Source of the DNA: Promethearchaeota archaeon
GTDB taxonomy: Archaea; Asgardarchaeota; Lokiarchaeia; Sigyniarchaeales; SOKP01
DNA length: 64,000 nucleotides
NCBI GenBank assembly: GCA_016839705.1
Contig: JAEOTR010000035.1
Span: 1 to 64,000 of the forward strand
Direction of reading: 5' to 3'
Positions 23,433-43,847 of the stretch are shown one piece after another. The notes below the pieces were generated by a model. It saw nothing but the letters and a program-made list of their open reading frames with translations, was not told the origin of the DNA and ran no database searches. The position numbers were made by a program, and so were the translations under genes. The number at the start of each line of letters is the position of its first letter. Position 1 is the stretch's first letter.

Positions 23433-23576
23433 TTACATATAGCCTTTGATTTCCCTTCTTATCTTGTATGCTTCTTTCTCTTCAAGATATCGAGGGTTTA
23501 GTCTAAGGACAATCTCGAGCATACTAAGTTTTTGCTCGTTTATTTCAGTTTTATTTAATTTTTTAAATATTGACAT
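23433..23576 (-). CDS. 47-aa LNPRY-motif micropeptide (not in ORF track)
   Basis: MSIFKKLNKTEINEQKLSMLEIVLRLNPRYLEEKEAYKIRREIKGYM*; AAGTGATA RBS and A-rich leader; shares its motif with 43186-43407 and 43668-43847. Confidence 0.75.
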   Translation of the reverse strand: MSIFKKLNKTEINEQKLSMLEIVLRLNPRYLEEKEAYKIRREIKGYM

Positions 23577-23794
23577 TTTTTTATTATCACTTTATTTTTC
23601 TTTGTTACTATAAATATACAAAAAAACCTATTTTAATGCACTCTATAATAAGTTTAAAGTATCCTTAAGAACCTTAAACTTTCTTCCCTTTGAATTCTAG
23701 GATTTCCAGGATTTTTAGTGCGGTTTAAATAATTACCCAAAATTCATTTAAATTTTTTAAGGATTTAAATATAAATGCTAAATTATTACTTATT

Positions 23795-24685
23795 ATGGAT
23801 CTAATTTACAGGAAACTACAAAATTTAGGCGGCTCACTATATGTCAGTTTGCCTAAGATATGGACTAATAAATATCAATTGAAAGAAAAATCACCAGTTG
23901 CGCTTGAAATTCGAGATGATGGAACAATAAAAATCAAACCTAAAATTGAGCAACCGATTGAAGCATTAAAGGAGGATGTTGTGTTAGAAGCAGATCAATA
24001 TGTTATATGGGAATTGTTAAAAAAGAGTCTTGCTGGTGAAACTAATATCCTAATAACTTCTGATAAAGAAATTAACAGGGCTTTAAGAAAGAATATTAGG
24101 AGATATGTGAATAGGCTCCCCAATACAGAAGTTATTGAGGAGACAAAACATAAAATGGCGATTCAAAATTTTGGGTATAAGGAAATTCCTACGAAAAAAT
24201 TAATTAAACGTTTATTAGATATCGTGGCTAATATGTTCGAAGATTTACGAAACGACTCCTTAGATGATTTGCATGGTAATTTCGAACAATTGAGGAAATT
24301 TTACTTCATTTTAGTCATTCATATTAGAACTTATCTTAGGACAGGAATTTATATTTCATCAACTAGTGATTTTACCCCTCTTGAAGCTATGGATTACCGA
24401 ATGCTTTGTGAAAAGAATCAAGAGATAGGTGAAATTTTAGAAAGATTTAATCCTTCTAAAGGAACTTTTGATTTTTATAAGGAAACTGAACAATATTTTA
24501 ATGAAATAAGAAAAGCATTTCTTAATAAAGATGATAAACTAGCGTATTTTAGTTGGTTGAAAAAGGATATATTATTCAAAAAAGCTCAAGATATAATGGA
24601 AAAATTAGACCATGATGATAAAGACAATATTAACATTCTACTTCGAATTGTTCAGAATTGTAAAGACATGGCGGCATTGATATAA
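23795..24685 (+). CDS. AbrB/MazE-domain + PhoU-like phosphate uptake regulator
   Basis: RKLQNLGGSLYVSLPKIW N-terminal AbrB motif; helical PhoU-like remainder. Confidence 0.8.
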   Translation: MDLIYRKLQNLGGSLYVSLPKIWTNKYQLKEKSPVALEIRDDGTIKIKPKIEQPIEALKEDVVLEADQYVIWELLKKSLAGETNILITSDKEINRALRKNIRRYVNRLPNTEVIEETKHKMAIQNFGYKEIPTKKLIKRLLDIVANMFEDLRNDSLDDLHGNFEQLRKFYFILVIHIRTYLRTGIYISSTSDFTPLEAMDYRMLCEKNQEIGEILERFNPSKGTFDFYKETEQYFNEIRKAFLNKDDKLAYFSWLKKDILFKKAQDIMEKLDHDDKDNINILLRIVQNCKDMAALI

Positions 24686-24800
24686 AATCTTAAAGTTTTA
24701 GACGCTTCTAAAATAACTTTAAATATATTCAAAATATTTTTCTCTCCAACCACTGAAGAGGAAAGAATTTTAAATTTTATTTTCTTTTTTTCTATTAACT

Positions 24801-25582
24801 ATGATCACTTGGATTTTGGGCGGAATATTACTTATTTGGATTCTAGCAAACCGTTTTTCACAAAATGGAAAAATAGATGGAGAACCTCTTGGCATGCCAC
24901 GAGGTACGGTTAGAGCCTTTATTACCCTAATGATCGTCTCATTTCCCTTTGGATATTTACTCAGGGGAGAACCAATTCCACCATTAATCATTAACGCTAT
25001 TTTTATTGTGGTTGCTTTTTATTTCGAAGCAAGGAGAAGTAGTCACGAAAGGTTAATGCAAATTGTTAATGAAGTCAAAAATTCAGAACAGGTATCTATT
25101 GATCTGAGAGAAAAAAAAAACCTTTGTATTTACCGAAATATACCGTAAGAATCTCATTATTAATTATATTGGTACTTGTCCAAATTATGATATTTTTTCA
25201 ACCCAGTCTTATTTTTGAGACAACAAACACCCTCGCGGATATTTTACTCATTGTAATTTTCTTTATTATTGGGGCTTTTTTTAGATCAATTATTAACTAT
25301 CGAGAAAAGAAAACAATAAAACAACAAATAGGAGATATGGATGCCTCCTTTTCAGATGTTCAAATCATAGAGAAACTCGCGTTAAAAGAAGTTAGTTGGT
25401 GGAACTCCACGGGAAAAAGTATCTTTTCTATTATAATGTTACTGTTAATTACCACTGCGCTTTTCTTTTATACCTTTAATATTGACTATGTTTTTCTTGA
25501 TTTCCCCCAGTATGGAATATTATTAACTCTACAAGGAACTCTTTTACTTCTTGTTAACGTCTATTATGGCTTTAGAGATTGA
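24801..25582 (+). pseudogene. membrane protein split by a frameshift in an A10 run (or slippage-decoded gene)
   Basis: Repeated motif PLGMPRGTVRAF / PLYLPKYTVRIS; the two frames join at A10 (25111-25120). Confidence 0.75.
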
Positions 25583-25626
25583 ATTATTTAATAATTAATT
25601 CCCTTTTTTTTGCATATAATTTGGCT

Positions 25627-26625
25627 CTAAAGATGAAATTCTGTTCCGGTAACTCCAATAGTATGAGATGGATGACGAGACATTATTTTATTAAAGTTAA
25701 ATCCCGTACAGTGCATACCACATATAATTTCCGGGTTTAATTTTTCGATAAAATCTACTTTTTTTTCAATGGTTTCCTCTGAGTTCCATTCTTCATGAAA
25801 ACCTCCAATTACAGCATAGATTTTATTTATTCCTGTTATTTTCTGAGCATGTTTAATTGTATTTATTACACCACAATGACCGCACCCCGTAATAATTGCT
25901 AATCCCTTATCTTTTATGTTAATGTATATTGAAGTTTCATCTCTGAAGGTATGTTCTGTGAATTCCTCTCTGTTCTTCATTATATAGATCCCTGGTGTCG
26001 ATTCACTTTGATCAGTTAACTCAATTTCCCCACTTGTGATGATTCCATTATATAACTTAACAGGTTCGTTAGTTTCAATTAATTTTACTCCCTTTTCATT
26101 CACTAAATTAGTAATCATATTTTTATTTAATGGACGTAATTTTCTACTAATGGCAAATTTATCTTTTTCCTCTTTCAAAGCTACTGCTAATTTATCAGCA
26201 GGAACTACTTCTCCTGATCTCTTTACAGCTATAAAGAACTGTTCATAGCAGAGGGGGTTCAAATAAAATTCGCAATCTTCTTTTAACAATGGAATCACTT
26301 TTTTTAAGCCACCAAAATGATCAAAATGTCCATGGCTTAGTATCATTTTATCAACTTCACTTAATTTAATATCAAACTGCTTACAATTCTCTATAACAGT
26401 CCCAGCAAAGCCTCCCGTGTCAACTAAAATATTTTTATTCTGTTCTCCATCAATGATTTTAATCAGTATAGATAAACCATGTTCGCCTTTAGCTCTACTT
26501 GCCGCACCACCTGGATATTTAACTTTACCTATTAAATTCATCTTGGGTAAAATAGTAAGACTTACTTCATTGGTAGTCAAAACTTTCAACATAACTTTAC
26601 CCGATTCAATACTTCCAATATCCAT
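25627..26625 (-). CDS. metallo-beta-lactamase fold hydrolase
   Basis: EHGLS, LVDTG, SHGHFDHFGG, GCGHCG, GGFH, GMHCTG. Confidence 0.9.
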   Translation of the reverse strand: MDIGSIESGKVMLKVLTTNEVSLTILPKMNLIGKVKYPGGAASRAKGEHGLSILIKIIDGEQNKNILVDTGGFAGTVIENCKQFDIKLSEVDKMILSHGHFDHFGGLKKVIPLLKEDCEFYLNPLCYEQFFIAVKRSGEVVPADKLAVALKEEKDKFAISRKLRPLNKNMITNLVNEKGVKLIETNEPVKLYNGIITSGEIELTDQSESTPGIYIMKNREEFTEHTFRDETSIYINIKDKGLAIITGCGHCGVINTIKHAQKITGINKIYAVIGGFHEEWNSEETIEKKVDFIEKLNPEIICGMHCTGFNFNKIMSRHPSHTIGVTGTEFHL

Positions 26626-26789
26626 TTTAAATTCTTACCTCTTTAAAATAATTGAATTAATATTAGGTTTAATATATTATTGTATGATTCTTAGTTAAAA
26701 TTATTAATAGAAAACAAATAGATCTTTATATAAAATAAGACTAATCAATATTATTTCGAATTAATATCTAAACTTTCGAGGTTATAATA

Positions 26790-27429
26790 ATGGAAAATGA
26801 AGAATTAGAAGAATTAAAACTACTTTCTATAACGAAAATAAAAGTAGCCTACAATCGCTCTATTGACGTAGAAGCAACTCATTTGATTCTTTGGAATAAA
26901 TCTGAAACATTAATGAAATTAAAATTGATATTAACGTTGATTTTAAGTGTAGTTGCTACCAGTTCTATAGTTTTCACAGTAAACTCTACGATTTTTACAG
27001 ATTTTGGATTATTCATCTTTATCGCAGATATTTTCACCCTTTTGATCATGGTTTTGATAGGGTGGGAAGTTCTTCTGATGTTTACAGGAAAATCTTTAGA
27101 TCACGGGCATATTGTTAATGAAGCATATCAACTACGTGAACAGAGTATGAATTTTCTTCAATACAAATTGGATAACTTAAATAAGCAAGGATATAGACGA
27201 ACTTAAATCTCTTGAAATAAAAGATTCCACGCTTAAGGAAAAAAGTGCTAAATATACCAAACGACTTTCAAATAATACAAAAAGCGCGATTAAAGAGAAA
27301 ATTGAAGATTTAGAAAAACAGGGAATAAAATTGTATATAATGACGCAAGAAGAAATAGATTTTGCTACTGAAAAGCTCCAAAAATATACAGCACTCCGAA
27401 CTTGTGAAGCATGGATAAAATTTAAATAA
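26790..27429 (+). pseudogene. SLATT-like 2-TM protein with a frameshift near 27190
   Basis: Two TM followed by H...A..LR; the frame continues as IDELKSLEIK...WIKFK* if 2 nt (AT) are restored in GGATATAGAC. Confidence 0.65.
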
Positions 27430-27561
27430 AAAGCATCTGTGAAGTTCAAAATTCTAATCAATTTTTCAAAAAATTTCGACTAATATTTTCCTCTATTAAA
27501 GTTAAAAAGTAAAAGATGATAAACTAATTTAATTTAAAATCATTTTTTAGCTGATTATAAG

Positions 27562-28689
27562 ATGAGCTATGTTGAAGAAGAAATAGAAATTTATCGAAAT
27601 TTGCAGAAACACCTCAACCAAATGCCAATTGGTTTCCCTGCAGTAAAATCTGGAGCCGATATACGTCTATTGAAACACCTTTTTACTCCTGAAGAGGCAA
27701 AAATTGCCACATTTTTAAAGTTTGGATGGGATCGAGACTTAGAGCCCTTAGAAACTATTTATGAACGGGCAAAAAGCACGGGAATTTCACACGAAGAATT
27801 AGAAAAGATATTAGACAGGTTGGCATCAAAAGGATCAATAATGTCCAAGCGAGAAAGTGGAAGAAAATTGTATGGAAACGCAGAATTAATGGTAGGGATG
27901 TTTGAATTTCAAGTTAATAAACTAACAGAAGGATTTGTAGATGATTATCTCGAATACGCGGATCAAGGTTGGTGGCCTGAAGCTCTTAAAGTAAAGGGAG
28001 CACAATTACGAACTATTCCTGTGGAACAAAGTGTTAAACCTAAACATAATGTAAGTACTTATGATGACCTAATAAAACTCCTTGATACAACAGAGGGACC
28101 TTATGTAGCAATAAATTGTGTATGTAGACAAGTGAAAGATGTGATGAAAGATCCTTGTAAGGTAACTTCCCGAAGAGAGTTATGTCTTGGTTTCGGAGAA
28201 CCTGCTCAATTGTATATTGATCAAGGTTGGGGTCGTTCGATTAGTAAAAAAGAAGTTCTTGAAATCTTACGAAAAAATGAGGATGATGGATTAGTGATTC
28301 AACCAGATGACTCTCAACATTTAAATTTTATATGCAGTTGTTGTGGATGTTGTTGTGAATTTCTATCAACGCTGAAAAAGCTAGCATCTCCAGGCAATTT
28401 CTCAATAACTAATTATTACGCAGAAGTGGATTCTGAATTGTGTACTGGTTGTGGTACTTGCGTAGACATCTGTCAGATGAATGCGATATCTCTTAAAAAT
28501 GAATTGTCTTCGATAAAACGGAGGAAATGCCTGGGTTGTGGAAATTGTGTAGCTAAATGTCCGTCAGAGGCAATAATACTTAATAAAAGGGAAAGAGAAT
28601 TTACCCCTTATCCTACAATGGATGATTTATTCGATAGGATTAGGTATCGAAAGCATAAAATACAGGAAATCGCATCGAGAAAAGTTTAA
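27562..28689 (+). CDS. 4Fe-4S dicluster protein with N-terminal wHTH
   Basis: CVCR, ICSCCGCCC, CTGCGTCVDIC, CLGCGNCVAKCP. Confidence 0.9.
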   Translation: MSYVEEEIEIYRNLQKHLNQMPIGFPAVKSGADIRLLKHLFTPEEAKIATFLKFGWDRDLEPLETIYERAKSTGISHEELEKILDRLASKGSIMSKRESGRKLYGNAELMVGMFEFQVNKLTEGFVDDYLEYADQGWWPEALKVKGAQLRTIPVEQSVKPKHNVSTYDDLIKLLDTTEGPYVAINCVCRQVKDVMKDPCKVTSRRELCLGFGEPAQLYIDQGWGRSISKKEVLEILRKNEDDGLVIQPDDSQHLNFICSCCGCCCEFLSTLKKLASPGNFSITNYYAEVDSELCTGCGTCVDICQMNAISLKNELSSIKRRKCLGCGNCVAKCPSEAIILNKREREFTPYPTMDDLFDRIRYRKHKIQEIASRKV

Positions 28690-28725
28690 ATTTAATCAAA
28701 ACAAAAATCCTTTCTAATTTTTATC

Positions 28726-28854
28726 ATGGAAAAATGTAATACTTGCGGAATGCTTCGTGCTACAAAGGATCTAGTTCTATTAGAAAACGGGAATTTCATG
28801 TGCTTCTCATGTTGGAATAAAGAGCTTAAAAAAAATGAAAAATCTCAAAAATAA
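28726..28854 (+). CDS. 42-aa CxxC..CxxC zinc-finger microprotein (not in ORF track)
   Basis: MEKCNTCGMLRATKDLVLLENGNFMCFSCWNKELKKNEKSQK*. Confidence 0.7.
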   Translation: MEKCNTCGMLRATKDLVLLENGNFMCFSCWNKELKKNEKSQK

Positions 28855-29108
28855 GCTAGAATTAATTGGCTAACGTCTGAACCTAATAACTTAAAAGAAA
28901 AGTATATTTTAAAAGATCAAATTTCTTTATTTTACTGTCCTCTTCTGATCCCTCTAAAGGAATTAGGGGCATCTTTATAATGATTTTTTGGTTTTCTTGA
29001 AAAAAAAAATACCACTTTAGAAGAGAGAACTACTAAATGTCCTGTTTTGTATGTATTTTTCAAGCCCTCAAAGAAATAAGAAAAAAATCTAATAAAAAAG
29101 ATTAAAGC

Positions 29109-29321
29109 TCAATAAGAGCACAAATATGTGTACTTCCCTAAATCAAATTTTTTAATTTTAATGTCCTCTTCCAAATTCTCTTTAGGAATAAGGTTCATCT
29201 TTATTACAAATTTACAGTTTTCCAAGTAGATGTTATTATAGAAAATATTCGTACATTTATCCCAATCAATAAACCGCCTTATAGTTATCTCTTTTTTTTC
29301 TTCTGGTAGGAGAACTGACAT
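29109..29321 (-). CDS. hypothetical protein
   Basis: 70-aa ORF with no recognisable motif. Confidence 0.4.
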   Translation of the reverse strand: MSVLLPEEKKEITIRRFIDWDKCTNIFYNNIYLENCKFVIKMNLIPKENLEEDIKIKKFDLGKYTYLCSY

Positions 29322-29761
29322 GTTTTTAATCTAATATTTAAGTTAGTTTTTCTGTACGGTGATCTAAATGAAACCCTTAATTATAGATGCTATTCCAACG
29401 CTTTAACTTACTCTGAATTTCCCATTAGAGAATTTTTATTAAGTGTCGGTGATAGCGTGTATCACCAATATTAATATTAAAAGAGGTATTTAAATCTTTC
29501 TCAAGGAGTATTTAAGTAATCAATTTCTGTGTCCAAAAACTTAAATGATATAACCTATTTTATTAAAAAGAATTTTTAATTAATAAAACGAAGTTTTAAT
29601 CTATTTAAGGTTTTTAAAGGATTTTATCGTGAAATAAGGTAGATCTCCTTTAAAGGAAACTCTTAAAGAACTTGATTTAGCATTTATTATAAAAGTTATA
29701 TATTAAACCTGCATTTTTTCTAATAACTTAAAGAACTCAAATTATAGTCAGATTCTTAAAA

Positions 29762-30232
29762 ATGCCTAATTCGAAGGTAAAGGATTTTGAATCGTTTATT
29801 AGAAGTGATATTATAGATAAAATTAAAAAGATAAAAGGAAAACATCCACCAATTGCTGAATTTATTGAAAATGAATCTCGATCATTGTCAGTAAAATCAA
29901 TTTATAACTTGAATAATAAATTAAAGAATTTCTATCTTATTACATTAAAGAATTATTCAAAACAGCCCAGGTTGAGATATTTCTTAACCGTCTCAATTGC
30001 CAATAACAGTTCTGATTTACTAGTGCAACTAGCAAGAGAAATGGTGTTAAAACATGATTTAAAATTAATCCAGTATTCGATATTTCCTAGAACATTAAGG
30101 ATTCAATTGTTATGTATGAAAGAAATCCAATTAATCGAAGACTATAATCATTCTGTAAAAGTTTTAGAATCAATTCGTAAAGAATTTCGAGAAAAATTAG
30201 GTAGAATAAAGAACCTTATAGAAAATGAATAA
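29762..30232 (+). CDS. hypothetical protein
   Basis: 156-aa ORF with typical codon use, upstream of pyk. Confidence 0.7.
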   Translation: MPNSKVKDFESFIRSDIIDKIKKIKGKHPPIAEFIENESRSLSVKSIYNLNNKLKNFYLITLKNYSKQPRLRYFLTVSIANNSSDLLVQLAREMVLKHDLKLIQYSIFPRTLRIQLLCMKEIQLIEDYNHSVKVLESIRKEFREKLGRIKNLIENE

Positions 30233-30313
30233 TTTTAAAAATTATTAATAAATTCCATTACCTTAAGAAAAAATTATTTTACTGAGTTTCTTAGGAAAAA
30301 AAGGTTTCTTATA

Positions 30314-31774
30314 ATGTCTCTACGAGAAAATACAGTGAAGATAGTGAGTACCCTCGGTCCTGCATCTAGTTCAAAGGAAATGCTTAAGAAATTGATTGAT
30401 GCGGGAGTTGATATATTCCGTTTAAATTTCTCTCATGGAACTCATGCTGAGAAAAGGGAGTTAGTGGACAAAGTTAGAGCAGTTGATGATGAGGTAGGAA
30501 TAATAGCGGATATACAAGGTCCAAAGATAAGAGTTGGAAATTTCAAAGATAAGATTGCTTATAGTTTAAATATCGGCCAAGAGGTCATGGTCTTTGAAAA
30601 AGAGATTGAAGGAAATCAAGACCAATTTTCAATACCGCTAGATGGCTTTTTAAAATCTATGAAGACGGGAGATGTATTTTTTGTGAATGACGGAATTATT
30701 AAAATTCGGGTGAAAAGTAAGGCAGAAGATCATTTAATAGGCGAGATTTTGGCAGGTGGAATGATAAGTGATAGAAAAGGGGTGAATATACCCTCCGGTG
30801 AATTAAAGCAAAGAGTTCCCACAGAAAAAGATATTCAAGATTTGGAATTAATTGCAGAATTGGATCCCGAATTTGTGGCAATATCGTTTGTATCTGATGG
30901 GAGTGATGTCCTCCATGTGAAAAAAATCCTTGAGAATTCTGGTAATGATAATATTAAATTAATTTCTAAGATCGAAAGACCAGTTGCTTTAGATAATTTT
31001 GATGCCATTTTAGAGGTAAGCGATGGTATTATGGTGGCACGTGGAGATTTAGGTGTTGAGATTGATCCAGATAAAGTACCCTTAAAGCAAAAGAATATGA
31101 TTTACAAGTGCAATAAGGAAGGGAAACCAGTAATAGTTGCAACTCAAATGCTTGAGTCAATGGTAAATGCTCCTATTCCTACTCGGGCTGAAGCTAATGA
31201 TGTATTTAACGCTGTGTTTGATGGCAGCGATGCTGTTATGCTTTCTGGTGAAACTGCTGTTGGTAAGTATCCTATTAATGCTGTTCGTTCAATGAACCAG
31301 ATTGCGAAAACGGCAACCGAGAATATGCCACGACGCAAACCAGATGAATACGATTCTGATAGACTAACACATACCCAAACTTTAGGACATGCTATTTATT
31401 CCCTGGCAGCAGAAATGCAAGATTTAAATTTTAGAGGGAAAATTCTCGTAATTACTCGGGGAGGTTATGGAGCAAGAATGATAGCCAAATATCGACCCCC
31501 ATTACCCATTATCGCAATAACTCCCTCTAAAAGGACTGCGAGAGAAATGAATCTTCTTTGGGGAGTACAACCAGTACATATAGAAAATATTGATTTCTTC
31601 AATATGGATGCTGAAGAGATAATAGAACAAGCTGTAAAAAATGCCGTTGAGATAAAATTACTAGATGAAAACGAACATGTGATAATCTTACTAGTTTCAA
31701 GAAAATTTGAGAAAAGGGGAAATTTGGTTGGTTTCTATTATGTGGGTGAAATTCTTGAACATGAAACAGAATAG
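30314..31774 (+). CDS. pyk: pyruvate kinase
   Basis: KIVSTLGPAS, RLNFSHG, DIQGPKIR, IMVARGDLGVE, ATQMLESM, DAVMLSGETAVG. Confidence 0.98.
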   Translation: MSLRENTVKIVSTLGPASSSKEMLKKLIDAGVDIFRLNFSHGTHAEKRELVDKVRAVDDEVGIIADIQGPKIRVGNFKDKIAYSLNIGQEVMVFEKEIEGNQDQFSIPLDGFLKSMKTGDVFFVNDGIIKIRVKSKAEDHLIGEILAGGMISDRKGVNIPSGELKQRVPTEKDIQDLELIAELDPEFVAISFVSDGSDVLHVKKILENSGNDNIKLISKIERPVALDNFDAILEVSDGIMVARGDLGVEIDPDKVPLKQKNMIYKCNKEGKPVIVATQMLESMVNAPIPTRAEANDVFNAVFDGSDAVMLSGETAVGKYPINAVRSMNQIAKTATENMPRRKPDEYDSDRLTHTQTLGHAIYSLAAEMQDLNFRGKILVITRGGYGARMIAKYRPPLPIIAITPSKRTAREMNLLWGVQPVHIENIDFFNMDAEEIIEQAVKNAVEIKLLDENEHVIILLVSRKFEKRGNLVGFYYVGEILEHETE

Positions 31775-31949
31775 AAGATTACTCTAAACAGCTTTCAAGA
31801 TTTAGATTATTATCTAACTAATAAGATTAAGCAGTTTCACTTGAATATTATTTAAATGTCTCTATATATTAATTAGTCATAGACCTTTACATATAAAACT
31901 ACAAACCAATAATAAACTAAGATAATTAAAAGGCTTAAGGTAAAAAAAA

Positions 31950-32372
31950 ATGAGTGAAGAATGGAAACATGCATCATGGGTATCATTTTTAGGGATGATA
32001 GCGTGGATAATAGGAATCATAAGTGGAGTTATTAATCTTATATGGGGATTTGTTGGAATAATTCCACTTGCTGCAATACCTATTTTTGGAGCAGCATTAA
32101 TGGGTCCATTTATTTGGCTAATAATAAGTGGAATAATAGCAATTCTGGTATCCTTTTTTATAATCTTACCTAAATTTTCACTAAAATGTTCTAAAAAAGA
32201 TTGGGAATATCTACTTAATTGGAGAATGTCTCTGGGAACAACAAAATTCCCTTGGATGCTTTTTTGGGGAATAATTTTAGAAATATTTAGCTATGGTTGG
32301 GGTGGCTTTGCAGTTTTTATTCCCGCATTAGTGTTAATATTTGCCGGTCCAAGAAAATATGAGTGGAAATAA
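31950..32372 (+). CDS. membrane protein
   Basis: Hydrophobic helices; FPWMLFWG motif. Confidence 0.75.
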   Translation: MSEEWKHASWVSFLGMIAWIIGIISGVINLIWGFVGIIPLAAIPIFGAALMGPFIWLIISGIIAILVSFFIILPKFSLKCSKKDWEYLLNWRMSLGTTKFPWMLFWGIILEIFSYGWGGFAVFIPALVLIFAGPRKYEWK

Positions 32373-32502
32373 AAAAAAATCTACTTTAACTTTTTTTTTT
32401 CTATTTTTTTCTTCTTATTCAAAAAATTGTGAGCCCTTTATAGTATTTATATTATCTTGATTTTTTAACTCATATTATTTTACTAACTTCCTTATTATTG
32501 AA

Positions 32503-32913: not shown

Positions 32914-32937
32914 GTACCATTTAACATAAACAAAATA

Positions 32938-33135
32938 CTAATAATAAGAAAAATCATCGATATCGATGTTAGGTTGGTATTTAATTTTAAAGTTGTAACA
33001 ACGACAGCAAAAGAATTCAATGTATTCACTTTCCCAGAGATATGTTAGCTCTTCTTTTTCATCTGAACTAATATTTTTAATAAAACTTTCAAAGTCCAGT
33101 ATTTTCCCACATCTAAAACATTGTCGCTCTCTCAA
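32938..33135 (-). CDS. small zinc-finger protein (CxxC...LWE...CxxC family)
   Basis: CFRCG...F..F...LWES..IEFFCCRC. Confidence 0.75.
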   Translation of the reverse strand: MRERQCFRCGKILDFESFIKNISSDEKEELTYLWESEYIEFFCCRCYNFKIKYQPNIDIDDFSYY

Positions 33136-34594: not shown

Positions 34595-34794
34595 CTACAC
34601 AAGATAATTTGTATATTAATTTTTTGTCCTAATGTGGAAATTCTGTTTGGATGAGAAAAATTTATTTTCTTATCTCAATGATATATCATAATCATTGCTG
34701 CTAACATTATTTATAAACAAACAAAAGAGAATAGAATTGGAAATGTTACCTCCCTATTAAATATTAAAACTAAAGGAGTTTAGTAGGTGTAAAA

Positions 34795-35757
34795 ATGAGT
34801 AGTTTACATTTAGATGCAATAAAAGAAGCCTATCAAAAGATTAAAGGATTTGTTAGGAAGACACCTCTCATTCACTCAGCCTATTTTAGTGAATTATGCG
34901 GCAATAACGTTTATTTGAAATTGGAAAACCAACAACTCACAAATGCCTTTAAAATTCGTGGAGCCCTAAACCGAATGTTAAAATTGAGTTCAGATGAAAA
35001 AACTCGTGGAGTTATTACTGCCTCATCAGGAAATCATGCTCAAGCAATAGCTCTAGCAGCAAAACACTTAGGTATCTCTGCCAAAATCGTAGTTCCTAAG
35101 AATATTTCTGAAGCGAAATTAAAAAAAATAAAGCAATATGATGTAACCATTGTTCAAGAAGGAGATTTTGATGAAATTGAGACGAAAGCAAGAGATTTAT
35201 CTGCTCAAGAGAAAATAACATATATCAGTCCCTATAATGACATTGATATTATTATAGGCCAGGGAACTATTGCTCTTGAAATCTATAAGGATCTTGAACA
35301 TGTGGATGTGATTATTGTTCCCATTGGAGGGGGTGGTTTAATCTCAGGGATAGCATTCGCCTCTAAATTACTAAATCCAAAAGTTAAAATAATTGGTGTT
35401 CAAACTAAGGGCGCCTCTACTATGTTTGAATCTTGGAAAGCTGGTAAAATCATACAAGTCGAAGAATTTAATACCATAGCAGAGGGTTTATTAGGTGGAA
35501 TTGAATCTGATGCTATTACTTTTGAAATAATACAAAATTATGTTGATGAAATTGTGTTGGTAGACGAAGAGAGTGTTGAAAAAGCTATCAATCTCCTGTG
35601 GAATATAGAGGGTCAAATCGTTGAAGGAGCAGGAGCTACAGTTGTTGCTTTCTTAATTGAGAAAAAACAAAAATTCCTCAATAAAAATGTGGTAGCGGTA
35701 ATAAGCGGAGGAAATATCAATGAATCACTATTCAAAGAAATTTTGAGTAAACGCTAG
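34795..35757 (+). CDS. threonine/serine dehydratase (PLP, catabolic type)
   Basis: LKLENQQLTNAFKIRGA, ASSGNHAQ, PIGGGGLISG, ISGGNI. Confidence 0.93.
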   Translation: MSSLHLDAIKEAYQKIKGFVRKTPLIHSAYFSELCGNNVYLKLENQQLTNAFKIRGALNRMLKLSSDEKTRGVITASSGNHAQAIALAAKHLGISAKIVVPKNISEAKLKKIKQYDVTIVQEGDFDEIETKARDLSAQEKITYISPYNDIDIIIGQGTIALEIYKDLEHVDVIIVPIGGGGLISGIAFASKLLNPKVKIIGVQTKGASTMFESWKAGKIIQVEEFNTIAEGLLGGIESDAITFEIIQNYVDEIVLVDEESVEKAINLLWNIEGQIVEGAGATVVAFLIEKKQKFLNKNVVAVISGGNINESLFKEILSKR

Positions 35758-35794
35758 CTTGTATGTTTTAAAAAAAAAAGATAGAATTTAGTAA

Positions 35795-36316
35795 CTATTC
35801 AATATATTTAACAATTTCATCTAATGATTTTCGAGGTCTTGGTTCAGGTATCTCTCCCTTTGGGTATCCTAATGGGAGAACTGTGAGTAAATGATCAGTT
35901 TCTTTTAGGTTTAGCAATTTCTTTACATTTTCTCTGTTTATTCTTCCAACCCAACAAGTTCCGATTCCTAATGACCATGCTGCTAATGCTAGCTGTAATG
36001 AAGCAAAACAAGTATCGTGAAGGTACCAGTTAGGTGATAATTCCATATCTCCAACGATCGCGACCAATACAGGGGCTCCAGCAGTGAAAGGACCTGTGGT
36101 ACATTCTTTCGCAATTTTTTTGATAAGCTCTTTATTTCTAATGACATAAAAAGTCCAGGGCTGTCTGTTTCTTGCACTCATACACCACCTAGTTGCCTCA
36201 AGGATTTGATTCAAAATTTCCGCTTCTATATCCCTTGAATCATAACTCCTAATACTTCTTCTTTCTTTTAATAATTTCAGTTGCTCAGATTCACTCATAT
36301 GAATATCACTTTTCAA
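35795..36316 (-). CDS. nitroreductase family protein
   Basis: RRSIRSY, SARNRQPW, LGIGTCWVG, LPLGYP. Confidence 0.92.
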   Translation of the reverse strand: MKSDIHMSESEQLKLLKERRSIRSYDSRDIEAEILNQILEATRWCMSARNRQPWTFYVIRNKELIKKIAKECTTGPFTAGAPVLVAIVGDMELSPNWYLHDTCFASLQLALAAWSLGIGTCWVGRINRENVKKLLNLKETDHLLTVLPLGYPKGEIPEPRPRKSLDEIVKYIE

Positions 36317-36388
36317 ATCTATATGTTATAACTAGAAAAAGAAAGAATTACTTAAATATTCAGTTTGATTAAATGTAGCTGTATCACT

Positions 36389-36520
36389 CTATTCTTCAGT
36401 AATAATTAATTCTTTTTCTTCGATTTCCTCTGCTTCATCCTCAATTGGGATTTTATGAAGATGACCGTGATATATAATAAATCTAAACTTTTGCACCTTA
36501 CTAACTGCCTCATGTGGCAT
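36389..36520 (-). CDS. 43-aa microprotein with acidic tail
   Basis: MPHEAVSKVQKFRFIIYHGHLHKIPIEDEAEEIEEKELIITEE*; ATG at 36520 preferred. Confidence 0.5.
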   Translation of the reverse strand: MPHEAVSKVQKFRFIIYHGHLHKIPIEDEAEEIEEKELIITEE

Positions 36521-36570
36521 GTGTTGTTTGATGATCCCAAATAATAAAAATAACGATACTCCACAAATTT

Positions 36571-37749
36571 TCAAAATAATTTCAGCTTAATGCGGTCTAT
36601 TGCATTCTTTAAGGTTTCTAGTTTTTGTGAAAATGAAAATCGGACGTACTTTGATCCTCGATTTTTATCAAGAGTTTTACCATTGAAAAAACTCGAACCT
36701 GGAACAACCGCAATACCACCGTCTTTTACTAGGAAGTTAGCAAACTCTATATCATTCATACCGAATTGGGAAATATCGGCAAAAATGTAATAAGCTCCTT
36801 GAGGCTTAAAAATGCGCATTCCTAACTTTGTCAATTGATTGTAGAGGAAATCTCTATTCGTTTGATACCGATTAATTAGATCCTTAAAATATGAAGGTCC
36901 TAAGTTAAATGATTTTAACGCAGCAAATTGTAATAAAGAAGGTGCTGCAACTGTTAAATAATCATGAACTTTCCGAATTCCATTCATTAATTCTGTGGTT
37001 GCTGAAACATAGCCAATTCTCCATCCTGTTATTGAAAAAGTTTTACTAAATCCACTGATTGTAATGGTTTTTTCACGCATTGAATCAAAACTTCCAATAC
37101 TTTGATGCTTTAGATCATCATAAATAATATATTCATAAATCTCATCAGTAATTACTATTATATCATTATCAATGCATAAGTCTGATATAGTTTTCAAATC
37201 TTTTGGAGAAAAAACCTTACCAGTAGGATTGTGGGGTGAATTAAGCATAATTGCTTTCGTTTTTGCATTAATATTGGATTTTAGCAGTTCTTCATCAATC
37301 TGATAGGTTTCTTCAGATAAGGATACAAAAACAGGAGTTGCTTGAGCGAGATATGTAATCGGGACATAATTCTCATACCAAGGCTCAAAAATTATAATTT
37401 GGTCACCTGGATTTGTTACCGCAAATAAACTTGCCGCTATCGCTTCACTCGCACCACAAGTTATTGTTAGTTCTTCATATGGATCGACGTCTATTTTATT
37501 ATACTTTTTCAATTTTTCTGCAATTTTTTCCCTTAAATCAGGCCGTCCATATGTTACAGTATATTGATGTACATCTTTATTAACTCCTTCCTTAATACCT
37601 GTAATTAGCTCATCGGGAGGAGAAAAATCAGGCATTCCCTGTGAAAGGTTAATAGCGTTATTTTCAATGGCCATCCGTGTCATTTCTCTTATTACTGATT
37701 CTTGAAAATAGTTTAAACTTTCAGCCAATTTTATCATTTTTTTTATCAC
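36571..37749 (-). CDS. class I/II PLP aminotransferase (YbdL/MtnE-like)
   Basis: INLSQGMPDF, NSPHNPTGKV, TDEIYE, SGFSKTFSITGWRIGY. Confidence 0.93.
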   Translation of the reverse strand: MIKKMIKLAESLNYFQESVIREMTRMAIENNAINLSQGMPDFSPPDELITGIKEGVNKDVHQYTVTYGRPDLREKIAEKLKKYNKIDVDPYEELTITCGASEAIAASLFAVTNPGDQIIIFEPWYENYVPITYLAQATPVFVSLSEETYQIDEELLKSNINAKTKAIMLNSPHNPTGKVFSPKDLKTISDLCIDNDIIVITDEIYEYIIYDDLKHQSIGSFDSMREKTITISGFSKTFSITGWRIGYVSATTELMNGIRKVHDYLTVAAPSLLQFAALKSFNLGPSYFKDLINRYQTNRDFLYNQLTKLGMRIFKPQGAYYIFADISQFGMNDIEFANFLVKDGGIAVVPGSSFFNGKTLDKNRGSKYVRFSFSQKLETLKNAIDRIKLKLF

Positions 37750-37975
37750 CCTACTTAATTCAAGTGTTAAACTTATTAAAGTTTTGAAATCAGCTTTAAT
37801 TCGCTTATTATTTCTTTTAGTTTAACATACTACTTATTTTAATTATGACCAACGTTAAAAATCTTAAGTTTACAAAGAGTTAAGAATAAACTTTTTTACT
37901 AAAGTGTGAGAAAATTCTCTCGGATAAGCAAAATAAAAAATTCTAAAATAAATCAAGGTTTCAAATAAATATAGC

Positions 37976-39253
37976 ATGAAAATACAGAATAAACTAATTA
38001 AATCCGAAAATCAGAACTTGCTAGTCAGTAAAATTTCTCTGATTATCGCTATATTTTTTGCGAGTATAGCAGGGTATGCGTATTTTGCTTTTATACCACG
38101 ATTTTTATACGAAAAAGGTTTCTCAGAAGGACAAGTAATTTTTACGATGACTTGGATGGGGATTGGCTTAGCTTTATTTTCCTGGCTTTTTGGAAAAATA
38201 AGCGATAAATCAGGACGAAGAAAATTATTTCTCATTTTAGCCCTTTTTTTACAACTTATCGTCCTTTCTTTATTAAATTTAAGTAACCACATTGTTTTTC
38301 ATTGTGTTTTAAACTTTTTCAGGGGAGTTATATTAGGGATGCGAATGCCAGCATCTGATGCTCTATTTGCAGATATTGTTGAGAATTCAAGTAAGAAGGT
38401 TAAAATGGTACCTAAATTAGAAACAACCGAGGTTAGTGGAACACAATTATCACTTAGTAGTGCCACTAAAAGCACAGGATGGGCCATTGGAGTCTTGCTG
38501 TCAAGCTCTTTAATTGGTATTTTTGGGGTGGATTCGTTAGTTCTCTTCTTAATAATCACAACTGCTATTTCCTTAATTTTCGCAATTCCAATACAAGATA
38601 TTAAGAAGAATAACTTAGTAGATCAAGGTGGTGGTATCGATATCACGGAAGAGAAGATCCAATCCCGCAATACATCATCCCGTAAAGGTTTAATCCCACG
38701 AAAAAAGATGAAAGTTAAACTCATTCTTTATATTAGCGTCTTTTTTCGTCAGTTTGGAGTAATACCATTTATTCAGATTATCAGTCTCTTGCTTTTTACC
38801 GCTGGAATCCCTGATGAGCTATCGGGAATAGTTATTGCTTTAAATCCAATATTGCAGGTGGTAGCAATGGTCATTTGTGGCAGAATTGTCGATAATCCGA
38901 AGATTTCAGAAAAATTGATGCTTGCCATCGGATTTGTATTATCTACTCTGGCATTAGGTTGTTATGGATTGGGAACATCGACGGGTTTAATAGCATATTT
39001 CATCCTTGGGCAAGTATCACTTGGTTTTTCATGGGGCTTTATTTCCACAGGTGCAGTAAAGTATATCGTAAACCATGCTCCAATGGATAGAGCATTTTAT
39101 ATGGGTATTTGGATGACTGATCTTCAGATAGCAAAAATCACCTCTTACCAAATTTTTACTTTTATTTGGATTAGTCTATTTACTCCTACAATGACTTTGC
39201 CATTTGTTGCTTTAATTCCTCTTATTGGATTAATATTTGTGTATTGGTTATAA
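37976..39253 (+). CDS. MFS transporter
   Basis: GKISDKSGRRK motif A; about 12 TM. Confidence 0.9.
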   Translation: MKIQNKLIKSENQNLLVSKISLIIAIFFASIAGYAYFAFIPRFLYEKGFSEGQVIFTMTWMGIGLALFSWLFGKISDKSGRRKLFLILALFLQLIVLSLLNLSNHIVFHCVLNFFRGVILGMRMPASDALFADIVENSSKKVKMVPKLETTEVSGTQLSLSSATKSTGWAIGVLLSSSLIGIFGVDSLVLFLIITTAISLIFAIPIQDIKKNNLVDQGGGIDITEEKIQSRNTSSRKGLIPRKKMKVKLILYISVFFRQFGVIPFIQIISLLLFTAGIPDELSGIVIALNPILQVVAMVICGRIVDNPKISEKLMLAIGFVLSTLALGCYGLGTSTGLIAYFILGQVSLGFSWGFISTGAVKYIVNHAPMDRAFYMGIWMTDLQIAKITSYQIFTFIWISLFTPTMTLPFVALIPLIGLIFVYWL

Positions 39254-39344
39254 AAATATAAATCTTCATATCAACTCATTTTAAGATTACATTAACGAAA
39301 AATCAAAGTATTAAGGAATAATATATTAATTTAGTAGAGAAACC

Positions 39345-40508
39345 ATGGATATTAGTGAACTTAAAAAAAATATTAAGCAACTTATATTCAATAAAGGAGC
39401 AAAATTAGTTGGTATTGGAAGCCGAGAACGACTTAAGGATGCCCCTGCTTCTGCGGATATGGAATATTGCTTGCCAGGAGCTCAAAGTTGTATTATATGG
39501 GCATACACAAACCCTATAGAAGCACTGGAGAATTATTTCTCTAAAAAAGAAAGGATGAGTATTAAGAAAGCTCAACAAATTGGATATGCGGGTTCATGGA
39601 GAACCGCACTAATTCTTGCAGAGTTCAACAAAAAAAACACAAATTATCAAGCATTTCCGGTTATACCAAATGCAAAGTACAGACCTCGAAAAGATTTACC
39701 CAATGATATTGGAGGAGATATACGTTACCCTGACTTTTCATTAAGATATGGGGCAGTAGCAGCTGGTTTGGGACACCTTGGATGGTCAGGTAACTTGGTG
39801 ACTAAAGAATATGGTGGTTCATTATATTTAGGAGGTGTGTTGACCACAGCACCTCTTGTACCTGATCCTATGGCTGAAGAAAATAATTGTAACAAATGTA
39901 AACTTTGTACAAAGGTATGCACTACTGGTTATTTTTCTGAAAATGAAGAAGAAGATATGCAACCAGTTATTATTGGTGGACAAACAGAGACATATGCCAA
40001 GAGGGGAACATTTTCACAATGCGGGATTGGATGTGCCGGGTGGTATGGGTTATCAGAAGATGGCACTTGGAGTACGTGGACACCAGGTCATGTGTGTTTG
40101 AAAGAAATACCCGAAGAAAGATGGCAAGATAGCGACTTTCGAAGAGATTTATATAGCAAAATCCTTATTAATAAAACTCTCCCCGAAAATATGAGGAAAT
40201 TTAATCAATCCATAGCTAGATCCTTTGGCAACGCAGCAAGACTTGAAAATGTAGGACTCCGCCAATTTGTAGATACAAATCCTCGATGTGGCAACTGCAA
40301 TTTTATATGCGTTGCTGAACCAAAGAAGAGAAAAGAACTCTATTCAATGCTTATTAATTCGGGAAAAGTCTATATTGATGATAATGGATTAGAGTATGTC
40401 AAAAAGTGTGATGAAAATGGAAAAGAAATTATCTATTATCCCCCAACCCAAGAGGAATTTTTCACAAAAGAGGAATTAACTGAATTAGATAATATTAGAA
40501 ATGTCTAA
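39345..40508 (+). CDS. epoxyqueuosine reductase / reductive dehalogenase-like Fe-S protein
   Basis: GAKLVGIG, AVAAGLGHLGWSGNLVTKEYG..LGGVLTTAPL, CNKCKLCTKVC, CGNCNFIC. Confidence 0.8.
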   Translation: MDISELKKNIKQLIFNKGAKLVGIGSRERLKDAPASADMEYCLPGAQSCIIWAYTNPIEALENYFSKKERMSIKKAQQIGYAGSWRTALILAEFNKKNTNYQAFPVIPNAKYRPRKDLPNDIGGDIRYPDFSLRYGAVAAGLGHLGWSGNLVTKEYGGSLYLGGVLTTAPLVPDPMAEENNCNKCKLCTKVCTTGYFSENEEEDMQPVIIGGQTETYAKRGTFSQCGIGCAGWYGLSEDGTWSTWTPGHVCLKEIPEERWQDSDFRRDLYSKILINKTLPENMRKFNQSIARSFGNAARLENVGLRQFVDTNPRCGNCNFICVAEPKKRKELYSMLINSGKVYIDDNGLEYVKKCDENGKEIIYYPPTQEEFFTKEELTELDNIRNV

Positions 40509-40544
40509 AATAAGAAAAAAACGAAGAGAAAGATTTCCGGCTTT

Positions 40545-41831
40545 TTACTTATTCCTTGGTGGTTTAATGAGATACGCCAATGCAGCTGATCCTAATGACA
40601 TAATCCCCATTACTATAAAAAGTACTAAATAGCTACCAAAAATCGTGACAAGCAAATTCACTCCAACCGCACCAATAAAACCGGCGATCCCATAAGCAGT
40701 AAACACGATCCCGTAGTTAGGACCTAAATTTTTAGAACCGAATAAATCAGAAGTAGCTGTAGGAAATAGACTAAAATTGCCTCCAAAGCAGAAAAATATC
40801 GCACAAGTAATGATTAAGAAATATATCTCATTAAAATTCGTTGTAAAATAAATGAATAACAAAACAGCTTGAGTTAGAAACATTAGTAACATTGCTTTTT
40901 TATAAGTTATTATATCTGCCATCTTTCCCCATACAATTCTTCCTAATCCGTTAAATAATGCTGCCAAACTTCCAATTAATACAAAGTCACTTGTGCCAAT
41001 CACATATGAAAACACACTAGGTGCAACTTCAGTTTTGGCAAACGCGGAGTAGGACCCGATCACCATGAGACCGGATATCGCACTTAACGCGAAAGCTGCC
41101 CAGAACATCCAAAATTGGGGTAGTTTGACAGTTTGACTTCGCTCGAATTCCAAACCTGAGATTCCACTCTCTTCAGAGGGTACGGGAGACTCCCAACCAG
41201 CAGGTGTCCAACCAGTAGGAGGGTTACTTAGCGCCATTGCTCCACCAATAACAAGAATAATATAAATTATTCCTAAAACAATAAACATTATAGGAATATT
41301 CGGAGAAATTACATTAACAAAATTTGGAGCTTTATCAGATAGACCAGTAGGATTAGCAAGTGCTTTAATTACAAAGTTAAAAATGAACGCTCCGGCACCA
41401 AATCCTGCCACAGCAATTCCATTGATAAACCCCTTTTTATCTGGAAACCATTTCCCCGCAGCTGCAATTGGACATACATACCCAAAACCAATTCCTACTC
41501 CAAATATAATACCATATGTTATTAATAATCCAATAAAGGTTGTCATAAATGCTGAGGATATTAACCCAATACCAATTAGAATTCCTCCAAGTATGGCAAC
41601 ATTTCTTGGCCCGTATTTTTGTTGCAATGATCCAGCAAAGATCATTGTCACAGCAAAAGAAAGCAAGCCCACACCAAACACGTATACGGTTAATTCCTTA
41701 GCTGCATTCAAATAGGGACTTACGAACACTGTAACTGTTCCCCAAGAATAGATCGTACCTAAAGCTAACTGAATCATAATAGCCCCAATTACCACAATCC
41801 AGCGATTTCGAATTTTTTGATCTTCAGACAT
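40545..41831 (-). CDS. OFA-family (oxalate:formate antiporter-like) MFS transporter
   Basis: LGTIYSW, KWFPDKKG..G..VAGFGAG, NGLGRIVWG, FGSKNLGPNYG. Confidence 0.9.
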   Translation of the reverse strand: MSEDQKIRNRWIVVIGAIMIQLALGTIYSWGTVTVFVSPYLNAAKELTVYVFGVGLLSFAVTMIFAGSLQQKYGPRNVAILGGILIGIGLISSAFMTTFIGLLITYGIIFGVGIGFGYVCPIAAAGKWFPDKKGFINGIAVAGFGAGAFIFNFVIKALANPTGLSDKAPNFVNVISPNIPIMFIVLGIIYIILVIGGAMALSNPPTGWTPAGWESPVPSEESGISGLEFERSQTVKLPQFWMFWAAFALSAISGLMVIGSYSAFAKTEVAPSVFSYVIGTSDFVLIGSLAALFNGLGRIVWGKMADIITYKKAMLLMFLTQAVLLFIYFTTNFNEIYFLIITCAIFFCFGGNFSLFPTATSDLFGSKNLGPNYGIVFTAYGIAGFIGAVGVNLLVTIFGSYLVLFIVMGIMSLGSAALAYLIKPPRNK

Positions 41832-41987
41832 ATTAACTTCACTTAATAAATTCTTCTATTTTCTAAGAATTGCTTGAAAGATAAATATTTTGTATTAATA
41901 TTTTAAAAAGATTCGAGGAGTTTTAATTGAATAACAGAGCTTAAAAAAATTAATCGTATATGAATTATAAAGATTTAAAGGTTAGAT

Positions 41988-42983
41988 TTATTTATTTCCT
42001 TTCAAAATTTCTTGTCTTTTTTCAGCCATTCTTTGCATTCTTTTCATAATTCGTTCTCGTATTTCTGGCTTGATATCTTTTAGTTGTTCCATTGATTTTT
42101 GAGCACCTTCTTGGATTTGTTTAATCATCATTTTTTGGTCTTCTGGATCTAATTTTTGGAGTGCTTTATAAAATTGTTCTTGCCCTTCCTGTGGATCATG
42201 GGGTATTCTTCCGGATAACAGCCCACCATCTACTAAAAGCGTCTCACCTGTTATAAAACTACTAGAATCACTTGCTAGAAATAAGGCAGCATTAGCGATA
42301 TCTTCTGGTATTCCTGCACGCCTTATTGCTTGACCATCCCTCATAAATTCCTTTCTTAAATCCCCCCATTTTTCAGCAGTTTCACGTGAAAATCCAATAC
42401 CCTGACCAAATATTCCTGTGGCTATACCGCCAGGTGCTATTGTATTTGCTCTAATCCCAAATATTCCTAATTCAACTGCTGCAATTCGAGCTAGGTGAAT
42501 TAATGCTGCTTTAGAGAGAGAATATGCTAAACCGCCCATCCCTTGCTGAAATCCTGCCACAGAACCTGTAAATATAAAACATCCGGATCCTTGCTTCTTC
42601 ATTAAGGGTATCGAATGCTTCATGCACAGGACTGCTCCTCGAAGGTGAATCGCCATAGTATGGTCGAAATCTTCGGTTTCGGTATTTTCAATTCCCCCTC
42701 CAGAACCAGGATTCCCCGCGTTTGAAAACACAATATCGAGTTGACCAAATTTCTCTATTGCGAGATCAATGGCTCTTTTTATATCAGATTCTTGAGATAC
42801 ATCAGTGTGAATATACATTGCGTTTTTTCCAAGCTCTTCAGCAAATTTTTCTCCCATCTCATCCCAAATATCTGCTAAAATAACCCCTTTAGCCCCTTCT
42901 TCTATGAAAAGCTTTGATGTTGCTCTTCCTATCCCACCAGCAGCTCCTGTAATAAGAGCTACTTTTCCATCTAACTGTTTCAT
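41988..42983 (-). CDS. SDR oxidoreductase with Q/E/K/M-rich helical C-terminal extension
   Basis: TGAAGGIG, NAG, YSLSK, SSFITGETLLVDGG. Confidence 0.92.
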   Translation of the reverse strand: MKQLDGKVALITGAAGGIGRATSKLFIEEGAKGVILADIWDEMGEKFAEELGKNAMYIHTDVSQESDIKRAIDLAIEKFGQLDIVFSNAGNPGSGGGIENTETEDFDHTMAIHLRGAVLCMKHSIPLMKKQGSGCFIFTGSVAGFQQGMGGLAYSLSKAALIHLARIAAVELGIFGIRANTIAPGGIATGIFGQGIGFSRETAEKWGDLRKEFMRDGQAIRRAGIPEDIANAALFLASDSSSFITGETLLVDGGLLSGRIPHDPQEGQEQFYKALQKLDPEDQKMMIKQIQEGAQKSMEQLKDIKPEIRERIMKRMQRMAEKRQEILKGNK

Positions 42984-43185
42984 AATTATTTATTAAATAT
43001 TATATTTTTTAATACTTTAACGATCAAGGGTTTAAAAATAAAGCTTCTTACTGTTATTGTCACTAAAAAATTCTTTCCTAAATATAGAAAGTTAAAAAAT
43101 GCAGAAAATTAGATATGAAATCATTATTTATAACTTCAAATAAGGTATACAAATTGTATTTAAAAATAAGAGATAAAAAAATTAA

Positions 43186-43407
43186 TTAAAAACCATAGGT
43201 ATTGAAGCTCGTATTAGAATAAGCTTTCGCTGAATGAATTCGATCGTGAGCTTCACTCATAGAAATTACTTCTTCAAAATATCGTGGATTTAAATCTCCA
43301 AGGAGTTCATCAACTTCACTTTCTTTTGTTTCTTGAACTTTAGGATATTCAACCTCTTCAATTTCAACACTTATCATTTCCATTACTTTTTCATAAGCTT
43401 GGGTCAT
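43186..43407 (-). CDS. 73-aa LNPRY-motif micropeptide
   Basis: ...LLGDLNPRYFEEVISMSEAHDRIHSAKAYSNTSFNTYGF; tandem paralog of the next gene. Confidence 0.8.
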   Translation of the reverse strand: MTQAYEKVMEMISVEIEEVEYPKVQETKESEVDELLGDLNPRYFEEVISMSEAHDRIHSAKAYSNTSFNTYGF

Positions 43408-43667
43408 TTTTTTTTCACGTTTTTTGTTTTTTCTTATAATTATTATATTGACAGGAGTTAATATATAGTTTAATAATAGGAACTCTTGATGGACTCTTAG
43501 ACTGTTTTTAGATTCTCACTTAAAAACCGTTCAAAAATTACCTCAATATCCATACTATTAGAAGATTTAATTTTAGTTTCTTTTGAAGAACTATAATTTG
43601 ATCTTGAATCATATAACATAAAATCAGGAGGAATTAAAACAATTAAAAATAGGAAAAATAATATTAA

Positions 43668-43847
43668 TTAAAATCCATAAGGATTGATGATATTATCTGA
43701 ATAAGCTTTCCTTGAATAAATTCGATTGTGGGCTTCATTCATAGAAATACCTTCTTCAAAATATCTTGGATTTAAATCTCCAAGAGATTCAGCTTCATCA
43801 ATCTTTTCAACTTTTTCAACCAATACTTCTTCATATATTTGGACCAT
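43668..43847 (-). CDS. 59-aa LNPRY-motif micropeptide
   Basis: MVQIYEE...SLGDLNPRYFEEGISMNEAHNRIYSRKAYSDNIINPYGF; ATG 43847 follows the AGTGATA RBS. Confidence 0.8.
   Translation of the reverse strand: MVQIYEEVLVEKVEKIDEAESLGDLNPRYFEEGISMNEAHNRIYSRKAYSDNIINPYGF

Follow-up and report, generated by a model that had tools for sequence, protein, structure and literature searches.

An undescribed family of Asn-Pro-x-Tyr-core microproteins beside two types of regulator gene in a Loki archaeon

The stretch of DNA analysed here (the window) comprises 64,000 nucleotides, positions 1 to 64,000 of contig JAEOTR010000035.1 of a Promethearchaeota archaeon (assembly GCA_016839705.1; Lokiarchaeia), and contains three very small minus-strand open reading frames (ORFs), one at 23.4 kb and two at 43-44 kb. 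The three ORFs are real genes under purifying selection and belong to an undescribed, lineage-restricted family of microproteins with clear regulatory wiring. A previous sequence-only reading of the window considered that each copy stands alone; however, regulatory ties exist for all three: the 43-44 kb pair carries the operator of a cassette located on another contig, which encodes a regulator with winged helix-turn-helix (wHTH) and tetratricopeptide repeat (TPR) domains, while the 23.4-kb gene is tied to a divergent AbrB-PhoU gene. The peptides are proposed, with a probability of about 0.55, to be cytoplasmic effectors that would dock through their Asn-Pro-x-Tyr core and aromatic tail and represent the output of transcriptional switches, the dispersed copies raising the dose.

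The microprotein family

Retranslation confirmed the coordinates, strand, lengths (47, 73 and 59 aa) and C-termini first attributed to the three ORFs, together with the A-rich leaders containing GTGA ahead of all of them (Table 1); a T-tract lies behind each of the three. Profile searches raise the number of copies in the genome from the three then recognised to at least 13 related microproteins, all having an N-[PA]-x-Y core: seven of A type, including both 43-44 kb genes, two each of types B and C, and single members of types E (the 23.4-kb gene) and F. The motif originally noticed, LNPRY[FL]EE, is far above chance, with five occurrences in the six frames of the genome against 0.0006 expected, but it is not common to all members: among E-type sequences it is found in the window copy alone (1/11), the subfamily keeping L-N-P-x-Y-x-x-E. 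The second motif, EA[HY]-x6-K[AG]Y, is a coincidence, since it occurs in just 3 of 32 A-type and 2 of 11 E-type sequences, and its distance after the first motif is 6 versus 1 residues, not identical as reported.

Pooled dN/dS values, calculated on non-independent pairs, are for the A type 0.12 in the core, 0.57 overall, 0.81 in the N-terminal half and 0.55 in the C-terminal part; for the E type they are 0.23 in the core and 0.32 overall, and the core of the C type reaches 0.04. The low core values indicate that the peptide genes are under protein-level selection centred on the motif, as had been supposed from the divergence of the copies. Selection at the protein level on a conserved N-terminal Gln-3 is not demonstrable, as this residue is almost always encoded by one codon. 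A peptides have a median net charge of -6 and in 30 of 32 sequences terminate with an aromatic residue, mostly G/A then F; the structural model of the peptide is of low confidence (predicted local distance difference test score, 59).

The E peptides form a separate, basic subfamily of 46-47 aa, found in 12 genomes of one genus (11 besides the host). Their link to the A type covers approximately 10 residues (hhalign probability 77%, E 2e-5 over 16 columns), and reciprocal hidden Markov model searches, top-ranked yet marginal (E 0.009-0.07 among 11,183 small ORFs), suggest that the E type is probably a distant homolog of the A type. Homology between D, a further peptide type described below, and A is not significant.

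The joint profile matches 73 of 400 Asgard genomes: 71 of the 134 others in the family of the host, together with a single genome from a neighbouring family; the remaining genomes searched gave no match. Among 1.8 billion representative sequences there were 86 matches, nearly all shorter than 125 aa; the nearest named homolog is a hypothetical protein of a Promethearchaeota archaeon, and the records holding relatives are mostly labelled Promethearchaeota. The view of a lineage-specific small-protein family with many copies in relatives was thus borne out by the scan of Asgard genomes, and so was the failure to recognise it: no significant match was found in Pfam, NCBIfam, PHROGs, PDB sequences or the ESM Atlas, no Rfam match and no viral relative were detected, and no description of the peptide family or of the regulator-peptide module was found in the literature. 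Some A-type genes (L222, L224, L227 and L228) lie in records labelled Hodarchaeota or Thorarchaeota by their depositors; the Hodarchaeota-labelled record corresponds, by its coordinates, to a genome placed in the genus of the host, and the depositor labels look wrong. The search for longer forms, which provides weak evidence, returned one 148-aa singleton for the A type and none for the D type; what look like fusions with eIF6 and with an ABC permease (P0067, P0090) occur on single short contigs from one study and were treated as probable assembly chimeras.

Operator, cassettes and the two regulators

Among two dozen A promoters, drawn from many genomes, the conserved elements are TCTAA repeats and the core AAGA[GC]TCCA, followed by a second R-R-GTT unit about 11 bp past the core and then by AAACTATATAT, located approximately 60-66 nt before the start; this operator is conserved although the spacers diverge. 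A matrix trained on other genomes only identified eight sites well above background in this genome, corresponding to the seven A genes and one B gene, and when the TATA part was included it gave zero matches in shuffled DNA. A distal conserved block is common to five of the dispersed copies, both window genes among them. The operator half-site recurs as a palindrome at the promoter of the regulator itself, in eight cassette loci of other genomes. The operator-TATA promoter shared by the seven A genes points to the cassette on contig C30, where the gene for an 830-aa regulator is divergent from A, B, D and C peptide genes, in turn followed by two Rab-like GTPases. Archaeal activators usually bind just upstream of the B recognition element (BRE) and TATA box (PMC5937170); the C30 regulator would likewise bind the operator of ~11-bp units upstream of BRE/TATA, most likely activating the A genes. 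A 22-nt match of an A promoter to a locus of a TTL-like ligase was discarded as chance, lying inside the coding region of that gene, and a sigma-70 promoter scan was disregarded because the host is archaeal.

The copied unit, approximately 200 bp comprising promoter, ORF and T-tract, is found at six distant sites including the window pair; it has no terminal repeats, and the likeness fades about 120 bp upstream of the operator. The dispersed copies sit between unrelated genes and the window pair is part of a well-supported clade of them; its site, beside a short-chain dehydrogenase gene, is occupied in other species too. A non-autonomous mobile element (miniature inverted-repeat transposable element) was rejected, given the lack of terminal inverted repeats and the presence of the same sites in several species.

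The 830-aa regulator has wHTH and TPR matches in Pfam, and its model displays three winged-helix units and a TPR superhelix. The latter appears generic and scores nearest to OGT (Z 23.7, root-mean-square deviation (rmsd) 10.2, 354 residues aligned) and BBS4; RapI (Z 18.9, rmsd 7.8, 321 aligned) and PlcR (Z 15.7, rmsd 4.5, 191 aligned) both rank below OGT. Regulator and peptides have the same range, being found in 104 and 71-75, respectively, of the 134 genomes of family f1, in the single genome of f3 and in none of the other families searched. At 14 of the 20 loci compared across genera, the regulator has a divergent peptide gene of C or A type, either adjacent or with a GTPase gene between. 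Of the five regulator paralogues in this genome, four have micro-genes opposite them; those of other genomes lie opposite genes for peptides, for GTPases or for large proteins carrying hydrophobic segments near the N-terminus. A TPR-short paralogue of 461 aa faces a large gene, not a peptide. A GTPase is the first divergent gene of many regulator paralogues, and in three genomes B-type copies are located directly upstream of GTPase genes, no regulator being seen within these 4-kb loci. The GTPase clade of the cassettes is also present in genomes without peptide matches, which is as expected of a pre-existing target but does not establish a link.

Further micro-genes were observed facing the other wHTH-TPR paralogues of this genome (L204:2317-2391 and 2677-2754; L113:2917-3102; L203:763-981). 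They include genes for 25-27 aa with GYNP/GQNP, one with a 27-aa D tail and a 73-aa gene starting with MVQVYE, and have palindromic operators of the GAACTTC-N4-GAAGT type. At L130, L133 and L146 the gene opposite the regulator encodes a 79-aa product that begins in family-like fashion (MxQVxVEK) and carries a hydrophobic anchor at its C-terminus; the next gene, for a Zn-finger protein, begins similarly.

The second regulator is the 296-aa protein encoded opposite the E gene, which has an AbrB N-terminus and fits AbrB+PhoU clusters by its features. Small-peptide genes lie opposite in most of the loci examined for this family. The genomes bearing E genes are those holding the closest clade of the window AbrB-PhoU protein, while more distant AbrB-PhoU genes face micro-genes of D type (nine loci) or C-like type (two loci); the B type faces AbrB-PhoU at the second paralogue of this genome and in one other genome. 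The D peptides at both regulator types are one family (hhalign 99.5%); the corresponding link for C-like peptides is weaker. Since the same D, and also B and C-like, peptides occur at both, the peptide types are wired to two unrelated regulators. Opposite AbrB-PhoU genes, the peptide genes are nearly always devoid of the TPR-type operator heptamer (counts below).

The region between the E and AbrB-PhoU genes (window 23577-23794) exceeds that of most orthologues by about 95 bp and, like its counterpart in one other genome, is without their TATAC-N11-GTATA box; the second AbrB-PhoU paralogue, on contig C32, keeps this box but faces a B-type peptide. Genes divergent from AbrB-PhoU genes at L258-L274 form undescribed micro-families, one of about 56 aa ending with YLYLY..KKNNGG and one of about 41 aa with YIPKTYR. 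A CAAX/Rce1-like protease is encoded 2 kb away from the E gene (window 20101-21246), with no sign of a conserved association with the peptides.

Table 1. Features of the three microprotein loci (window coordinates)
Feature	Position	Strand	Remarks
E-type microprotein, 47 aa	23433..23576	-	basic (pI 9.6), LNPxY core; without A operator
GTGAT of E gene	23586-23590	-	
AbrB/MazE-PhoU-type probable transcription regulator, 296 aa	23795..24685	+	divergent from E gene
T-rich tract 3' of 73-aa gene	43160..43185	-	probable archaeal terminator
A-type microprotein, 73 aa	43186..43407	-	acidic N-terminal half, GDLNPRYFEE core, aromatic C-terminus
GTGA, ribosome-binding-like site of 73-aa gene	43415-43418	-	
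Operator (three units ~11 bp apart) and AAACTATATAT BRE/TATA-like core, 73-aa gene	43458..43515	-	
Distal conserved block, 73-aa gene	43564..43604	-	partly palindromic; common to five dispersed copies; probable second binding site
T-rich tract 3' of 59-aa gene	43640..43667	-	probable terminator
A-type microprotein, 59 aa	43668..43847	-	pI 4.5; tandem paralogue, own promoter
GTGAT, ribosome-binding-like site of 59-aa gene	near 43855-43859	-	
Operator and TATA-like core, 59-aa gene	43899..43956	-	weaker match
Distal conserved block, 59-aa gene	44006..44046	-	perfect TAGTTC-N8-GAACTA palindrome

Further peptide types were seen alongside. In two genomes, a complete D-type tail forms the end of a 296-aa protein that has CxxC near its N-terminus and matches nothing in Pfam (L307:2021-2908, L308:1828-2715), indicating that the D motif can be a portable C-terminal tail. 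The gene of the 39-aa F-type member (L011:193-309; G000 C18) runs into the beginning of the following one with an ATGA overlap. Its counterparts at related loci lie ahead of genes for a bactofilin-like protein and for a helical protein, the latter carrying a wHTH-like domain at its C-terminus, and this layout is seen again in a second genus. A G-type member with LYNPRY.EE, probably of about 70 aa with a non-ATG start (L309-L314), was not found in this genome; its flanking genes are either those for phosphoglucomutase and an MFS protein or those for a RadA-like protein and an acyl-CoA ligase.

Effector output versus alternative roles

In the proposed mechanism, promoter-ORF-T-tract units, copied whole to six distant sites and retained across species, would raise the peptide dose under the single switch represented by the C30 regulator, and the AbrB-PhoU regulator, which sits opposite related peptides including the 23.4-kb copy, would provide a second, unrelated input. 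Once expressed, the peptide, presumably unfolded for the most part, may dock on a shared cytoplasmic protein through a helix-Asn-Pro-x-Tyr-helix core and the aromatic tail, changing the activity of this target in the manner of stress-induced small inhibitors or anti-adaptors. The effector role is favoured by the absence of a signal region from the peptides (no hydrophobic stretch, with a maximum 11-residue hydropathy of 1.2 in A and E), by the internal location of their conserved part and by their occurrence opposite a regulator lacking TPR as well. Moreover, the regulon contains almost only peptide genes; therefore the peptides must be its output, as ligands alone would amount to no output. 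Among the functions first suggested, that of short-linear-motif regulators of a common target fits best, with the target still putative. The co-regulated Rab-like GTPase clade is the best single guess, as GTPases close the cassettes, lead the divergent genes of many regulator paralogues and directly follow B copies in three genomes, although a tentative one. The complete proposal, in which two-regulator, multi-copy NPxY-core microproteins regulate the Rab-like GTPase clade as a Loki-specific signalling layer, is more doubtful still.

Several observations weigh against this scheme. The window A and E loci have no nearby GTPase, and the same applies to many C-type loci. Regulator clades tend to be paired with peptide types of their own, as cognate-ligand pairing would also predict. 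D-A homology is undetectable and E-A homology marginal, so one shared target may be too simple; furthermore, A peptides are acidic, E and C basic. The operator heptamer, present in 17 of 18 TPR-linked versus 1 of 24 AbrB-PhoU-linked promoters, is a pattern chosen after the TPR-linked promoters were seen. Finally, the PhoU-like domain is the sole feature that would suggest a stress or phosphate trigger.

In the main alternative, the peptides would instead be intracellular feedback ligands, each binding the TPR solenoid of its cognate regulator and turning it up or down by an RRNPP-like logic but without export, with the dispersed copies tuning the loop. The back-to-back arrangement of HTH-TPR protein and peptide gene across genera, the correspondence between peptide type and regulator clade, the resemblance of the solenoid to the peptide-binding OGT, LGN, APC6 and RapI, and the large gene, in place of a peptide, opposite the TPR-short 461-aa paralogue all agree with this possibility. 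It is nevertheless rather unlikely, as TPR-less AbrB-PhoU genes, too, have B, D and C-like peptides opposite them, the regulon would be nearly without output beyond its own ligands, and one 96%-complete genome has a weak C-like match and no regulator match.

Exported or processed pheromones, i.e., true RRNPP-like quorum sensing in an archaeon, would fit the cassette layout and the aromatic C-terminal residue of 30/32 A sequences, and leaderless RRNPP peptides may exist (PMC12700828). However, no hydrophobic signal region is present in A and E (maximum hydropathy 1.2), the best-conserved part is internal and not a terminal 5-10-mer, and no conserved exporter or peptidase was seen at the loci, making this explanation improbable. 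Similarly weak, and largely refuted, is a reading in which the dispersed A genes add no function and represent either passive duplicates or a small mobile element: the inclusion of promoter and T-tract, the location between unrelated genes and the nearly neutral N-terminal half (dN/dS 0.81) are compatible with it, but the core dN/dS of 0.12, the operator kept while spacers diverge, the occupation of the same sites in different species and the absence of terminal inverted repeats bounding the unit are not. Weakest of all, and very improbable, is the earlier suggestion of precursors of ribosomally synthesized and post-translationally modified peptides (RiPPs), acted upon by an enzyme encoded elsewhere: although dispersed multi-copy short ORFs recall the precursor sets of prochlorosin type, no conserved modifying enzyme or transporter is near any locus, PqqD/RiPP recognition element (RRE) and YcaO genes were not found in the 93%-complete genome by searches whose controls worked (radical SAM enzymes were outside this survey and the LanC search was without a working control), and there is no hypervariable core, the C-terminal part being constrained (0.55), the centre conserved (0.12) and the N-terminal half most variable (0.81).

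Relation to known systems and significance

The RRNPP(A) receptor-peptide systems include Rap/Phr, Rgg/SHP, NprR/NprX, PlcR/PapR, PrgX and AimR/AimP (PMC12700828). Similarly to these, the archaeal cassettes combine a DNA-binding protein having a C-terminal TPR with a small peptide gene beside it, with many paralogous pairs per genome; the adjacency holds for the cassettes (14/20 loci), but not for the three window genes. Unlike RRNPP(A) receptors, the regulator contains three winged helices instead of one HTH and a superhelix that appears generic and nearer to OGT than to Rap/PlcR; its peptides are charged, of 40-90 aa, without a signal region and with an internal conserved core, occur in seven dispersed copies, and are of types that also lie opposite a regulator without TPR (AbrB-PhoU genes face B, D, C-like and E), while Rab-like GTPases are co-located. 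As two defining features, a signal region and a peptide private to the TPR protein, are absent, the system was not classed as RRNPP.

Among anti-adaptors, IraP is induced by phosphate starvation. In the working model, the microproteins would resemble the E. coli RssB anti-adaptors, stress-induced small effector proteins (PMC3877760), in that small proteins under different regulators converge on one target; there is, however, no sequence relationship, the effectors described here are paralogous and multi-copy, and their target and trigger are putative. As for TFB-RF1 and Ptr2 (PMC5937170), the operator is directly upstream of the core promoter and autoregulation is probable, but here the regulator is an 830-aa multi-wHTH/TPR protein with a regulon of micro-genes, which it would activate. 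The window 296-aa protein, with its AbrB N-terminus and AbrB+PhoU features, resembles the archaeal "phosphate uptake regulator" proteins; unlike these, it faces micro-peptide genes and not phosphate transport genes. A role as HbYX-type proteasome activators was rejected, since A peptides end mostly with G/A then F, and in the E type the penultimate Tyr (8/11) is preceded mainly by A, G or P. The likeness to eukaryotic NPxY sorting motifs, which are PTB/FERM ligands in cytoplasmic tails of membrane proteins, is textual only, the archaeal motif being in soluble micro-ORFs.

The peptides are limited to a single Loki family and one neighbouring genome, and their proposed function is deduced from genomic data. 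Some of the genes have fewer than 50 codons and are easily overlooked by annotation. Very little has been described of gene regulation or microproteins in Asgard archaea, whose many small GTPases mostly have no known partners or role. The analysis yields a defined operator together with a candidate regulator, the complete regulon within one genome and a short conserved motif, all of which can be examined with purified components and without culture. For the wHTH-TPR cassettes, effector output is favoured over archaeal quorum sensing by the dispersed copies and by the second regulator. If the link to the Rab-like GTPases were true, the microproteins would represent a class of regulators for the "eukaryote-like" GTPases of Asgard archaea that is unrelated to roadblock or longin proteins.

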